Assembly (NCBI GenBank): GCA_963674705.1
Contig: OY771506.1
Coordinates: 1,216,001 to 1,280,000, forward strand
Direction of reading: 5' to 3'
Length of the DNA stretch: 64,000 nt
DNA from: Phycisphaeraceae bacterium
Lineage (GTDB): Bacteria; Planctomycetota; Phycisphaerae; Phycisphaerales; Phycisphaeraceae
This document shows, piece after piece, positions 28,539 to 55,942 of the stretch (the stretch's first letter is position 1; every line of letters begins with the position of its first letter). The translations under genes and the position numbers were made by a program. Below the pieces are notes generated by a model that was not told the origin of the DNA, did no database searches, and saw nothing but the letters and a program-made list of their open reading frames with translations.

Positions 28539-28559
28539 ATCTCAATTACCGAACACCCA

Positions 28560-28634
28560 ATAGCCGCGACCTGCCAGGTCGCGCGCCTGTTAGTCAATAG
28601 ATCAACGTCGCGCACGCTGGCAGCGTGCGGCTAT
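28560..28634. repeat. REP doublet (REPIN-like) of the RAYT2-associated family
   Basis: atagccgcgacctgccaggtcgcgcg inverted to cgcgcacgctggcagcgtgcggctat; the latter is identical to copies at 52576 and 53268. Confidence 0.85.
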
Positions 28635-28657
28635 AAGGCGTGCATCGATAGGTCTAT

Positions 28658-50821: not shown

Positions 50822-50860
50822 AGTAGCTGTATCAACGTTCACAGCACACATACTTCCCCA

Positions 50861-51065
50861 CCCAACGCCGGTCCTGAGCGCAGCGAAGGTCCGGGCGGTT
50901 TGTATAAATAACCACAGAGACACAGAGAAAATACATTTTCAAAAGAGATAAACACGGATTAACACAGATAAGAAGTGTTAGTTGTTGATTGCATCACACC
51001 AGATCCTATCCGTGTTCATCTGTGTTCATCCCTGTTCCCCGTCTTCTTCTCTGTGTCTCTGTGAT
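50861..51065. repeat. stack of three repeat families: REP-like copy (50861-50896), outer nonamer IR (50911-50929/51047-51065), inner nonamer IR (50941-50970/51007-51036)
   Basis: Inner right arm atccgtgttcatctgtgttcatccctgtt is identical to 37250-37278. Confidence 0.8.
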
Positions 51066-51076
51066 TCAAACCCAAA

Positions 51077-52522
51077 CTAAACCTTCGTCTTCAACCACCC
51101 GCCATGGAAGAAACGGCCGGCAAACAATATCCCGCGCACCGCCATCTCGCCGCAGAGCCCGTACCAGATCCCGACCAGCCCAAGACCGAAGTACATCCCG
51201 AACAGGTACGCCGCCGGCAAGCGGAACACGAACAGGCTGATGTACCCGAGGATCATCGTCGACCGCGTGTCGCCTGCGCCCTTGATCGCCTGGCTGAACA
51301 CGATGTACATCGCGAAGAAAGGCTGAACCCAGCCGCAAACCCAAAGCAGTTGCGGCGTCACTTCACGATGCACCGCCACCGGCGAAACCAACGCGATCAG
51401 CTTGTCTCCCATCGTGATAAACACCACACCGCTGACCGTCATCACCGTCACCGCGATCCCGCAGCACATTAACGCCGATCGCCTCGCCATCGTCGGGTCT
51501 TCCGCGCCAAGGTACTGCCCGACCAGGATCGCCGCCGCGCCCGCCAGCGCGAAGCCCGGCAAAAAGCTCGCCGACTCGATACGCACCGCCCACATGTGCG
51601 AGCCCATCAAACCCTCGGACGATGCAAGATGGCCGATCATCAGGATCACCAGGAAGTTGCCGCCCCAGATGACGATTCCCTCTGCAAGCTGCGGTATCGC
51701 AACACGGATGATGCGCTTCGCGGTATGCCAATGCGGCTTCAGACGCGCCGGACGCAGGCGAATCAATCGCTTACCACGGAACAGAACAAACATCGTCAGC
51801 ACCGCACCGACACCCCACGCGACCGCTGTGCCCGCCGCGATCCCCGCGACGCCATGCCCGCCGATCGGTTCAGGCCCGTAAACAAACAGCAGACTCGTGC
51901 AGACGTTCACCGCGTTCACAACAACGATGACGAAGAAAGGCGTTCGCGTATCACCCGCTGCACGCAGACACGCACCGCCGACAAACAACACCGAACTCAT
52001 CGGCCCCGCCAGCGAAACGATGCGCAGATACATCGTGCCCAAATCCAGCGCCATCGCTTCCAGACCCGCCAACAACACGATCAATCTTGCCAGCGCATAG
52101 ATGATCACCGACATCCCCAGACCCATGAGGATCGCCAGTAAAATCGCCTGACCCAGTGCCGCGTTGGCTAACCGTTTGTGGCGTCCGCCGATCGCACGCG
52201 ACACCAGCGCCGACGCCCCGACGCCGACCGATCCCATCAGTAAACCCATCAGCCAGTTCACGTATCCCGCAACGCCCAACGCATCGTTCGCCGCGACCGC
52301 CAGATCCTCCGGCTTAAGCTGCGACGCCAGGTACATGTCCACCGTCCCGACCAGGAACGCCATCACCTGTTCAAGCAAAGGCCAGATCGCCAGCACCAGA
52401 ATCTGCTTGCGCAGCGACAGCCCCGCCAGCTTCCCACCCAACGCTCTGGGCACCGGCGCAGCCACCGCCACCGCTTCACTTTCAGATCCTTCATCACGGC
52501 GCATGGCGGGCATTGTAGCCAT
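51077..52522 (-). CDS. MATE family efflux transporter
   Basis: Multi-TM protein; duplicated LRAAGDTRTP / IKGAGDTRST motifs; VGQYLGA. Confidence 0.92.
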   Translation of the reverse strand: MATMPAMRRDEGSESEAVAVAAPVPRALGGKLAGLSLRKQILVLAIWPLLEQVMAFLVGTVDMYLASQLKPEDLAVAANDALGVAGYVNWLMGLLMGSVGVGASALVSRAIGGRHKRLANAALGQAILLAILMGLGMSVIIYALARLIVLLAGLEAMALDLGTMYLRIVSLAGPMSSVLFVGGACLRAAGDTRTPFFVIVVVNAVNVCTSLLFVYGPEPIGGHGVAGIAAGTAVAWGVGAVLTMFVLFRGKRLIRLRPARLKPHWHTAKRIIRVAIPQLAEGIVIWGGNFLVILMIGHLASSEGLMGSHMWAVRIESASFLPGFALAGAAAILVGQYLGAEDPTMARRSALMCCGIAVTVMTVSGVVFITMGDKLIALVSPVAVHREVTPQLLWVCGWVQPFFAMYIVFSQAIKGAGDTRSTMILGYISLFVFRLPAAYLFGMYFGLGLVGIWYGLCGEMAVRGILFAGRFFHGGWLKTKV

Positions 52523-52575
52523 GTAGAAAAATCACGCGCGTGAGCTTTCGATAAACAAACCACGCACACAAGACA

Positions 52576-52727
52576 CGCGCACGCTGGCAGCGTGCGGCTA
52601 TAAGCTCTTAGTAAACAGTACGCGTTCAGAAGCAACCAGCCGCGAGCAGCCCTGCTCGCGCGCTGAACGCCCAACAATCATTACCCGTCCCGAAGCAACC
52701 AGCCGCAGGCAGCCCCGCCTGCGCGCC
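52576..52727. repeat. left REP array of RAYT2 (three AGCCGC-stem-GCGCG hairpins)
   Basis: Hairpins at 52576-52601, 52629-52663 and 52692-52727. Confidence 0.85.
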
Positions 52728-52733
52728 AACCCT

Positions 52734-53216
52734 TCAGCAATCATTGCCCTTCCCTTCAAACCAACACACCCCCCGATGGTCGGGCAGATACACCCCCAGC
52801 AGATAATCAAAGTGCTCCTGATCCGCGACATGTTTCTGACTGCCACCACGGCCGAACCAGTGTGCTTTACGTGAATGTTCATTTAACCTGCGCGTCAGCG
52901 ATTGCTTCAGGTTCTGCCGAACATCTTTCGCGTCTTTTTCAGTCGACAAACTCACAAGTATGTGAACATGCGATGCATCGGTTGCAATCCCGTGCAGCCG
53001 CAATGATTGGTTCTCGCATGCTTCTTTAGTAATGGCGATCAGTTGTGTTTGAATCTGCGCATCAAACTTAACAACCACCTGCTGTTGTCTTTCACGATAA
53101 CGATCCGCCATCTTGATGCTTTGTGGTTGAATCCCTTTGCCCCGCTGAACGTATCCGCGCTTGCGATCGGGCATCCACGAACCATAAGCATGAAACGTGA
53201 AGAGATAAACCGGCAT
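52734..53216 (-). mobile_element. REP-associated tyrosine transposase (RAYT, Y1 HUH), RAYT2
   Basis: YLFTFHAYGSWMPD, SHVHIL HUH motif, WFGRGGS, C-terminal Tyr; REP arrays on both sides. Confidence 0.85.
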
Positions 53217-53267
53217 ATGGGGATTGTACAAAGAACGCTGCGTAGAAGGTATTTGTAATAGAAAATC

Positions 53268-53406
53268 CGCGCACGCTGGCAGCGTGCGGCTATTGGCTAT
53301 TGGTAATCAAAGTGTGTTCAGAAGCAACCAGCCGCAGGCAGCCCTGCCTGCGCGCCGACCGACCAGTAACCATTACCCGTCATGAACAACCAGCCGCGGG
53401 CAGCCC
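53268..53406. repeat. right REP array of RAYT2 (two full hairpins and one truncated)
   Basis: Hairpins at 53268-53293 and 53321-53356, half-hairpin 53384-53406; same order and spacer motifs as the left array. Confidence 0.85.
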
Positions 53407-53505
53407 GGCCAGCTTCCCGCCCAACGCTTTGGGCACGGGCGCAGCCACCGCCACCGCTTCACTTTCCGATCCTTCTTCACGGCGCATGGCGGGCATTGTA
53501 GCCAT
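53380..53505 (-). pseudogene. truncated duplicate of the MATE gene 5' end (35 codons, then runs into REP and stops)
   Basis: 53401-53522 matches 52418-52539 at 115 of 122 nt; translates MATMPAMRREEGSESEAVAVAAPVPKALGGKLAGL-PAAGCS*. Confidence 0.85.
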
Positions 53506-53668
53506 GTAGAAAAAGCACGCGCATCTGTGAGGATTGGGTAAGTAAACCACCCACTATCGGACACCGGCTATTAATGCCCGCCCTTCTGCTGTAAACGTTC
53601 GCGGAAAACAGGTCGATATCAGTCAGACGGTTCTGTTCAAACATATTAACTCTGACCAGGGGAATTCG

Positions 53669-54613
53669 ATGAGCATTTTAAAAGCGCGAACCATTCTTGC
53701 GGCCGCCATCTTTGTCATGTCCGCCGCAACTGTTCTTGCTTCCGACAACGCATCCGAGCCGGTCAATCTCGTCGGCAAACGAACTTTTACGCAGGGCGAG
53801 CTGTTCAAGATCAACGGCTCGAGAACGATTAAGAAACACATCGTCGTCACTTCGTTCGGCCGAAAGGTCGACGACAAGGTCTTGAAGATGACCTTGGAAG
53901 CCGAACTCGAAGTCTATATCGCAAAAGTCGACGAGGAAGGCGCGGTTCGGCAAGCGAAGTTTCGTATTGTGTCATGCGATGTCAAAGACGAGTACGGTCT
54001 AATGACGGCTCTGCCGCAAGGCACCGTGCTCACCGTTTCGTTGAATGACATCGGTGAATCAACCATCACAAAAGATGGCGAGTTGCTTGATGATTCGGCA
54101 GCTCAATGGGTCGATGGTTTTACCCTGTTGCTGGATAATGACCACGGTGAATACTTGAACCCTGGCCACGAAGTCAGTCCGGGTGAGTCTTGGCCGGTAG
54201 ATGCAAAACAGATCGCCGCGAAACAAAACGCATCTGAATCCAGTTTCGTGATTCATGAAAAACAGATTAAGGGTAACGTCGTGTTTGATGGCGTTCGCAA
54301 GTACCCCAACTCGCCATTGTACGAGATATCCTACCACATGGACTTGGGCGAAATCCCCTTCCCCGACTCGGCTGTGTTTGGTGGGCTGAAGGTTCAAACC
54401 AACTCTCTGAAAGTCGACAGCAAAATGTTTATACCCGCTGATAATCATTCGCCAATCGTTGGACACAAGGAATCGGCCATCAACTATCACCGGCTGGTTG
54501 ATAAGCAAGACCCCAATCGTATGGTGATTCAACAGACCTTGATACTCTCACAGCAGTATCAGCGGATGCCCGTGAACACACAGCTTGGCGCTGTTGATGA
54601 ATCACACCATTAA
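53669..54613 (+). CDS. secreted hypothetical protein
   Basis: Signal peptide (VLA-S); beta-rich; VSPGESW motif. Confidence 0.75.
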   Translation: MSILKARTILAAAIFVMSAATVLASDNASEPVNLVGKRTFTQGELFKINGSRTIKKHIVVTSFGRKVDDKVLKMTLEAELEVYIAKVDEEGAVRQAKFRIVSCDVKDEYGLMTALPQGTVLTVSLNDIGESTITKDGELLDDSAAQWVDGFTLLLDNDHGEYLNPGHEVSPGESWPVDAKQIAAKQNASESSFVIHEKQIKGNVVFDGVRKYPNSPLYEISYHMDLGEIPFPDSAVFGGLKVQTNSLKVDSKMFIPADNHSPIVGHKESAINYHRLVDKQDPNRMVIQQTLILSQQYQRMPVNTQLGAVDESHH

Positions 54614-54687: not shown

Positions 54688-55677
54688 TTAAGCCATGGGC
54701 GGTGTTGCGCGCGACACGGTCCTGGCCACCACAGGCGGATCGATCGCCGTGGTTTCGCTTGCTTTCGGCTTCGGCGCTTTCGTGCCGACCGCCTTGGGCA
54801 TCTGATCTTCGCGCGGCATCACGATCTGTTTGGCCAGGCCCACCAGCGACAGCGCGCGGATCGTCCAGTACGTCAGGTCGAACTCATACCAGCGCAGCCC
54901 GTGTGCGGCGGAGCGAGGCAACGCGTGATGGTTGTTATGCCAGCCTTCGCCGAAGCTAAGCAGTGCAACCCACCAGAGGTTGGTCGACTTTTCGCCGGTT
55001 TCTTCGTAGTTCTGATAGCCCCACGTGTGTGCGGCGGAGTTCACGAACCACGTGATGTGGAACACCGCAACGGTGCGGAACGCAATCGCCCAGACGATCC
55101 ACGATAAACCCAGTTGCCAACCACCGATTGCAAAACCGATCGCAAACAGCAATACGGTCAACACCAACTGCGGCACGAAGAAGTAGCGGTTAAGAACGCG
55201 CTGACCTTTATCACGCAGCAGGTCTTTTGCAGCATCTTCACCGCAGATGCCTTCGAGTTTGTCGTGCAATGTCCAAAGAATGTGTGCCCACGTGAAGCCG
55301 TGCTCCGGGCTGTGCGGATCGTGATCGGTGTCAGAGTGTTTGTGATGTAAACGATGCACGCCCACCCACGTGACCGGGCCGCCTTGCCAGGCAAGACAAC
55401 CGCAAACAGTCAAGACGTACTCGAACCACTTGGGCGTCTTGAACGAACGATGTGTTAACAGGCGGTGGTAACAGAGCGTGATACCGATGCCGCCGGTGAT
55501 CCAACCGAGCAGTAGCGCCAGGATCAATCCCGACCAACTGAACAGGCTCGGAACGAACACAAACAACGCGATCAGATGCATCATGCCGATGCCGAGGATC
55601 ACCGTCCAATTCAGGTTCGCCCATTCAATCCCGCCACGACGTGGCGCGGCAGGTACATCACTATTTTGTTTGGGCAT
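54688..55677 (-). CDS. acyl-CoA (delta-9-type) fatty acid desaturase
   Basis: His boxes HRLLTH, HRLHH, HNNHH; GEGWHNNHH. Confidence 0.93.
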   Translation of the reverse strand: MPKQNSDVPAAPRRGGIEWANLNWTVILGIGMMHLIALFVFVPSLFSWSGLILALLLGWITGGIGITLCYHRLLTHRSFKTPKWFEYVLTVCGCLAWQGGPVTWVGVHRLHHKHSDTDHDPHSPEHGFTWAHILWTLHDKLEGICGEDAAKDLLRDKGQRVLNRYFFVPQLVLTVLLFAIGFAIGGWQLGLSWIVWAIAFRTVAVFHITWFVNSAAHTWGYQNYEETGEKSTNLWWVALLSFGEGWHNNHHALPRSAAHGLRWYEFDLTYWTIRALSLVGLAKQIVMPREDQMPKAVGTKAPKPKASETTAIDPPVVARTVSRATPPMA

Positions 55678-55942
55678 TCGGTTACTCTCGTCGTGGAATG
55701 GGTAGTCAATAGAGGTGGCACATGGTAGGTGCATCGGTCCGGCAATGCCAACGCCATGAACAAACATTTGCCCCTTGCGAGCTAAACCGCATGTGAGCCC
55801 GTGTCAATTGAGTACTTATGTATATAAGGACTTATCCACCGTTATATGAGCGCACATGTTCGGCGCAACCGGTGCGCATGCGCACGTAGACGGCAAGGAA
55901 TGTGTCAGATATGCGACTTTTAATCTTCAGCCGTGTGAAAAC

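Follow-up and report, generated by a model that had tools for sequence, protein, structure and literature searches.

A RAYT transposase locus in a Phycisphaeraceae genome, likely a recombinant of two related strains' versions of one slot

By published accounts, RAYT transposases pass down vertically, stay fixed in place and do not move as a unit; the rescue of orphaned REPs by a regained RAYT is stated only as a theoretical possibility (accessible text of 10.1101/2021.07.10.451892). In Escherichia coli, the slot of the REPtron, a RAYT (TnpA-REP) together with its flanking REP/BIME or REPIN sequences, is polymorphic: the portion of PMC3333891 available to us records its replacement by hicAB in 24 strains and its precise excision in 7. 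As far as the available parts of PMC3333891 and PMC8266576 describe it, the E. coli enzyme cuts between C and T, also in inverse REPs and at distances above 400 nt, and can link sites of this kind in vitro. No RAYT circle appears in the accessible part of an E. coli mobilome study (10.1101/2024.07.17.603846). REPs are also known hot spots of microhomology joining. In starved E. coli, 22 of 90 novel junctions fell in REPs, 14 of them with only 5-20 bp of microhomology (consulted portion of PMC3161906). After E. coli conjugation, 56 of 60 clones of the relevant kind had duplicated part of a gene, which was read as the single crossover of a circle, and four were products of homology-facilitated illegitimate recombination (HFIR; PMC3240628, as far as accessible).

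The locus described here lies in the window, by which we mean the whole 64,000-nt stretch analysed and to which plain positions refer. Direct comparison re-found the two 122-nt duplicates on which the original prediction was built (53401-53522 and 52418-52539, with seven differences), and placed them 983 nt apart. The minus-strand order also agrees with the one that it had claimed and, with the left-hand neighbours added, reads: a desaturase gene, a 314-aa gene on the opposite strand, the truncated duplicate (copy A), a half REP, two REPs, the RAYT, three REPs and the full MATE gene, which opens with the second duplicate (copy B). The features are as follows.

51077..52522, minus strand: MATE transporter gene, complete; 481 aa counted from the first ATG, with MRR at 52504 as the likely start; PF01554 and TIGR00797 above cut-off
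52418..52539, minus strand: copy B, MATE promoter and 5' end of the full gene; private changes at 52493, 52484 and 52436; Arg26 in common with the empty-site allele
52540..52576, minus strand: module-side MATE promoter region; homologous, at 68-70% identity, to what lies upstream of copy A and of the empty site
52576..52601, minus strand: A-type REP of the downstream array; ATAG foot, perfect stem
52636..52725, minus strand: two B-type REPs of the downstream array, in inverse orientation
52734..53216, minus strand: RAYT-like Y1 HUH transposase, 160 aa; H83-x-H85 and Y143 invariant in 29 homologues
53268..53293, minus strand: A-type REP of the upstream array
53328..53354, minus strand: B-type REP of the upstream array, in inverse orientation
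53386..53406, minus strand: half B-type REP and junction; shared GGGCTG at 53406-53401; C-to-T step at 53403/53402 (in copy B, 52420/52419)
53401..53522, minus strand: copy A, truncated MATE 5' end; differs from the empty site at 53515, 53437, 53429 (Lys26, ancestral) and 53407
53523..53668, minus strand: promoter region of copy A; 90% identity with the sister species' empty site
53669..54613, plus strand: 314-aa gene of no known family, present in this genome and the sister species alone (2 of 41 genomes); alternative cargo of the slot
54688..55767, minus strand: fatty acid desaturase, conserved left neighbour of the slot; start uncertain

MATE is 98% identical in the sister species (G004), which is represented by one contig with ~93% identity over 92.6 kb aligned. 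Past the MATE stop, at 50850-51060, lies a cluster of other abundant repeats whose summed contig depth is very high.

Copy A is fused to a half REP through cagccc, as had been proposed. The joint consists of GGGCTG (cagccc on the plus strand), which belongs to MATE codons 34-35 and also to the loop of the B-type REP, where it spans the hairpin loop; the REP partner is the 3' half. This microhomology amounts to 6 nt, or to 10 nt against one REP variant, and lies in the 3-10 bp range of HFIR joints. Homology between copies A and B runs ~38 nt further upstream, up to the REP end at 52576, with 68-70% identity (shuffle test, p 0.0002 for A versus B and 0.001 for the empty site versus B). Joining by homology on one side and by REP microhomology on the other is upheld. 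Two further signals were discarded. The first, hairpins that rank in the top 3% of windows for the MATE join and the top 6% for the junction product, is post hoc and weak. The second, a putative REP excision scar upstream of copy A (ATAGCCG beside GTGTC), has another base in the sister species and falls outside the local alignment.

The seven differences between the copies comprise one upstream change (53515/52532), four synonymous ones (S13, P23, G29 and A33) and the replacements E/D10 and K/R26, numbered from the first ATG. The predicted tally of four synonymous, two conservative and one UTR change is right in its counts and probably wrong in the label UTR, since MATE likely starts at its third ATG (MRR; 52504 and 53487), which would place that site in the promoter. 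TACAAT lies 7 nt ahead of this ATG, and the same motif and ATG recur in the relatives whose upstream DNA was examined, making it the probable start. The TACAAT-ATG spacing is also found ahead of the RAYT and is enriched about twofold genome-wide at 6-7 nt. By the same token, copy A is truncated as described, and its length is probably 29 codons rather than 35.

Judged from its sequence, the transposase would work like a RAYT. It passes the PF01797 Y1_Tnp model (33 bits, cut-off 23), with Y143 as the predicted catalytic residue, and shows the broad traits of a RAYT in a REPtron: a Y1 HUH domain, recurring REPs on both sides and a single copy at a conserved locus. The A-type REP has 27 matches in this genome (G000) and its reversed control has none. 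Named homologues are Planctomycetota proteins, several of them labelled RayT; 61 of 401 genomes of the order carry a homologue at E 1e-25, and the other homologues in the genome itself are only 54% and 47% identical. The protein falls below both NCBIfam cut-offs (NF047646, 18.9 versus 80 bits; NF033573, 28 versus 55 bits). Its earlier designation as 'RAYT2', if meant as group-2 membership, finds no support, given the NF047646 score, a foot of ATAG/CCAG instead of GTAG and a short perfect stem in place of a long bulged one. An IS200/IS605 insertion sequence is rejected by the NF033573 score, the single copy and the ancestral slot. The E. coli TnpA-REP structure is absent from the eight weak PDB matches. 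At position 90, where Trp is otherwise near-invariant, the RAYT has Leu. Its branch, at 0.34, is longer than that of its G009 orthologue (0.16), and the protein may be relaxed or changed in specificity. The whole genome contains 14 Y1_Tnp matches above the Pfam cut-off, one of which lies inside the window.

The best RAYT match among 41 genomes (G009, 62% identical) sits between the same desaturase and MATE, in a slot with the same REP family and an extra PRAI gene. The two RAYTs group with support 95/95 in a 51-sequence tree; together, the synteny and the tree rule out insertion of the RAYT at a new site. In G003, G008 and G010 the desaturase adjoins MATE with nothing between, and G007 has other neighbours. 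The sister species has the desaturase, the 314-aa gene and MATE, with neither RAYT nor REP in between, and the same empty-site joint, 52541 to 53523, occurs in runs X7 and X8 (one sample) and X9 (another study). Elsewhere, the sister species carries 24 A-type REPs and one B-type REP, of which 18 of 25 lie in alignments colinear with this genome and 16 have a full copy at the same place. It is without a RAYT of the clade in question, as its two RAYT matches fall in other clades. Because an orthologue occupies the same slot in G009 and the sister species has kept the REPs, we read the locus as a recombinant of two haplotypes of one slot. By this reading the slot has at least two haplotypes, a RAYT type and a 314-aa type, and the present genome carries both, fused. 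The RAYT being in its ancestral slot, it can at most have re-entered, as opposed to having spread to a new site.

Other RAYT loci differ between the two species as well. One RAYT (L024 in G004) forms a single clade in G004, G005, G002 and G009 and is missing here, where the counterpart (G000:C1:3774319-3774420) retains an overlap of ~100 bp, as expected for loss between direct REP repeats. At a third RAYT of this genome (G000:C1:2626525-2626995, L039) the G004 counterpart holds unrelated DNA. Only one of four RAYT loci is common to both sister species.

The empty site had been predicted to carry the allele of copy A. It matches copy A at three of the seven sites (repeat positions 46, 55 and 103) and the full copy at four (7, 85, 93 and 115), with no private change, and its promoter is near that of copy A (2 of 45 positions differ) and far from that of copy B (12 of 38). 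The empty-site allele is thus of the copy A type in the promoter and first half and of the copy B type in the second half, where the prediction fails.

The claim of two functional alleles of different descent, joined recently, fared better. No derived change is common to A and B (for a duplication halfway back to the species split, p 0.0016; for one at the split, 0.06). Lys26 is found in copy A and in all eight other genus members having the stretch (a count that omits G001, whose gene is cut off), and Arg in copy B and at the empty site; with Lys ancestral, one change suffices if the inner half of copy A derives from the donor. In a fragment dead since the split, ~4.7 amino-acid changes are expected at the local dS of ~0.15, whereas copy A has none besides the ancestral Lys (p 0.009, or 0.05 with Lys counted; 0.08-0.28 at dS 0.08). 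The near-absence of decay and the ancestral Lys together indicate that copy A is an old allele that was working until recently. The absence of shared derived sites and of decay rules out drift after a target-site or in-lineage duplication. The signature originally invoked, four synonymous changes among six coding ones, is weak alone (p 0.052; in the truncated copy two of three, p 0.18). Taken together, the comparisons support the view that A and B are two old working alleles, brought together recently.

The flanks of the locus look vertical in descent. Synonymous divergence from the sister species is 0.19 in the 314-aa gene, 0.148 in the desaturase and 0.145 in the 5' part of MATE, with 0.11-0.15 in three nearby genes. 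A breakpoint inside MATE, as anticipated, does exist at 51889 (p 0.0015), but the divergent donor tract expected on its 5' side does not; rather, the sequence on its 3' side has low divergence (dS 0.04) and an unusually close match to the sister species. Since 26 of 35 control stretches, intergenic DNA included, break as well, we do not regard it as diagnostic of a donor tract. The 5' part of MATE has an apparent excess of derived changes (21 versus 7), for which GC-rich outgroups may be the cause. No divergent donor tract was found in MATE or in the 314-aa gene.

The structure requires an illegitimate join plus one or more homologous crossovers, and three orders of events are possible. Tentatively, and at somewhat less than an even chance, we favour a recombinant of the 314-aa and REP-RAYT-REP versions of the slot that arose through a 983-nt circle and a single crossover. 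In a RAYT-carrying relative, MATE codon 35 would have been joined to the loop of the outermost REP by the six shared bases, closing a circle of 983 nt with the half REP, the RAYT, the REPs and the MATE promoter with its first codons. Circle DNA would then have reached a cell with the 314-aa version and recombined once within the 122-nt homology, between positions 55 and 85. The outcome would be a duplication without deletion, in which the outer half of each copy comes from the recipient and the inner half from the donor. Joining by host microhomology would be sufficient; cutting by the RAYT is possible and not needed. The full MATE gene would now use the donor promoter, and the repeats would permit renewed loss of the module.

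The circle route fits the promoter, five of the seven sites, Lys/Arg26, the absence of a deletion and the background divergence of the flanks. Sites 7 and 103 would need separate changes, and the order of the seven sites is not significant, as five of seven fit in 21 of 35 orderings (hand count). Its polarity would rest mainly on Lys/Arg26, and mosaicism is frequent in this clade (26 of 35 stretches); seven sites are too few to decide between the possible orders of events. The donor haplotype occurs in none of 11 genus genomes, and its 26-nt pattern has no match in metagenomes (near-identical records possibly left out). The donor search yielded two distant RAYT loci and a best protein homologue of 65% (with the same proviso on near-identical records). 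Among the small-share runs X1 to X3, run X1 yields both a MATE fragment with exactly this genome's sequence and a RAYT module that is 2-9% different (depth 2-4; the two may or may not be linked), which fits a RAYT resident in this species better than the circle route.

That observation bears on the nearest competitor, which we rate as less likely than the circle route, though not far behind it. Here the module and the full MATE gene would be resident, and the desaturase end, the 314-aa gene and the MATE start would have come in by HFIR, anchored by homology in the desaturase and joined by microhomology to the REP loop, so that the RAYT never moved. The variant module of X1 and the RAYT's position in its ancestral slot agree with this polarity, as does the lineage restriction of the 314-aa gene as cargo (2 of 41 genomes); the divergence of that gene, by contrast, equals background. 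Insertion with a small deletion is the usual product of HFIR in the accessible text of PMC3240628, and a deletion arises under this polarity only; against this, the free end had 120+ nt of near-identical MATE sequence favouring clean replacement. The empty-site allele would also need a separate origin as a mosaic, its crossover falling in a stretch of 30 nt. REP decay is slightly lower here (1 of 27 imperfect, versus 5 of 24 in the sister species, p 0.09), and two REP arrays found here are missing in the sister species, but that species in turn has REPs missing here. With gains, losses and decay in both lineages, we rejected REP gain or loss as a guide to polarity. Presence of the ComEC family also agrees with a resident RAYT; 10 of 14 controls have that family too.

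The linear REP-RAYT-REP-MATE donor first envisaged, with its homology anchor deep in MATE, would make copy A wholly recipient and copy B wholly donor. It predicts the same end structure, could account for the breakpoint at 51889 and might have a donor of the type seen in X1. It is nonetheless improbable: the empty site does not carry the A allele, the 5' part of MATE is at background divergence despite a donor promoter that is 30% diverged, and Arg26 in both copy B and the empty site requires an extra event. The join also lies inside the homologous region with nothing deleted, unlike the usual HFIR. Marginally less probable still is an old duplication or hybrid in the common ancestor, from which the sister species' empty site was made later by deletion between the two repeats. 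A single step of this kind would explain the A-then-B empty site, the REPs kept in the sister species and the background divergence of the flanks, and loss between direct repeats is seen at RAYT locus L024. However, the truncated copy is almost undecayed (by the test above, p 0.009-0.05 at dS 0.15 and 0.08-0.28 at dS 0.08), and there are no shared derived changes of the kind left by gene conversion.

The integrity of the assembly was examined with short-read contigs. Contig 6 of run X4 spans 52502-53506 with 0 differences, at a depth of 8.7 versus 8.9 and 8.8 in the flanking contigs. The junction is also bridged in X5, which is from the same sample as X4, and contigs break at the 38-nt core identical in both copies. 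Neither an empty-site joint nor an excised form was seen in X4, X5 or X6. In X6 (52500-53840), the module and the 314-aa gene start have depth 10-12 and the MATE body 0-2. An assembly chimera of two strains, raised as a concern at the outset, or an empty-site chromosome with a free circle, is very unlikely because a short-read contig crosses the junction without differences at flank depth, the identical module sequence occurs in a second sample (X6) and the genome is one 5.5-Mb contig, even though short-read contigs cannot phase across the 38-nt core and X4 and X5 may come from the source sample itself.

Returning to the circle route, the joint could have been made by the RAYT itself. The C-to-T step lies inside the 6-mer shared by both partners, ~110 and ~155 nt from A-type REPs, on the strand where these REPs read foot first. 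Catalysis of the joint by the RAYT would be compatible with these positions, though we think it doubtful; a six-base match exceeds what a RAYT-type enzyme should need, and the family is divergent, so its specificity may differ from that of E. coli. A fuller version, which strikes us as more doubtful still, is that the RAYT made two cuts between C and T, one within the outer inverse REP and one within MATE codon 35. It would thereby have excised the REPtron as a single-strand circle with the host promoter and gene start, and this captured host sequence would have served as the homing arm for re-entry into a RAYT-less relative that had kept orphan REPs. If true, such self-excision would make the locus a natural fossil in which a domesticated transposase had moved as a unit and rescued its population of repeats.

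At 45 other RAYT loci (38 with at least 600 nt on both sides), no host gene start is repeated around the RAYT, and direct repeats of at least 40 nt across the gene all contain REPs, as judged by eye. The survey obtained loci for 30 of at least 93 places among the matches listed. Within the main texts of papers free of subscription, we found no description of a REPtron lying between two alleles of the start of a host gene. Two other places in the species pair have cargo enclosed by direct copies of the REP family seen here; REP-linked cargo exchange thus recurs, and the MATE-start footprint is single. One place has a second 122-nt direct pair (G000:C1:1425503-1425624 and 1426778-1426899, L137), 91% identical and 1275 nt apart, which begins at a REP of this family and includes a copy of the terminal part of a small gene; in the sister species (L138), different cargo lies between REPs matching those of L137. 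At the other, around 28540-28640 of the window, there is one REPIN here, and the sister species (G004 L082:1450-2240) has two near-identical direct copies around a DUF5063 gene, a difference that appears to be a REPIN-bounded gain or loss of cargo.

The locus is real, well documented and built from known processes, with one testable unusual reading. Recombination of two related strains' versions is likely, and the transposase has possibly returned to a site that it had lost. With an empty site in the sister species, a junction that can be dated and REP sites in common, the locus offers a usable test case for RAYT loss and regain. If ordinary recombination by the host made it, or if the RAYT stayed put throughout, the locus is a one-off hybrid in a variable slot, of modest interest.

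Among known systems, IS200/IS605 peel-and-paste transposition uses a related enzyme (PF01797), and its circle junction would likewise link a site 3' of one hairpin to a site 5' of another on one strand. It differs from the present case, with its one copy at an ancestral locus, no second target site and 122-nt allele-like repeats; IS200/IS605 elements are not known to make such repeats. The REP rearrangement joints described in E. coli, as far as the accessible accounts go, are within-genome duplications of one allele, whereas here two alleles are joined. HFIR resembles the locus in having homology at one end and 3-10 bp of microhomology at the other, but in the accessible text of PMC3240628 it usually deletes about as much as it inserts, and the polarity first proposed deletes nothing. 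Single crossover of a recircularised fragment is alike in producing a 109-950 bp partial duplication of a homologous gene around an insert (same part of PMC3240628); the system described there is a plasmid construct in E. coli conjugation, and the piece here is chromosomal and bounded by REPs. The E. coli REPtron at yafL-fhiA shares the single Y1 HUH gene, the inverted REP pairs, the locus fixed across relatives and the dispersed cognate REPs. By contrast with that REPtron, the foot here is ATAG/CCAG instead of GTAG, and both cargoes stand side by side with a duplicated host gene start.
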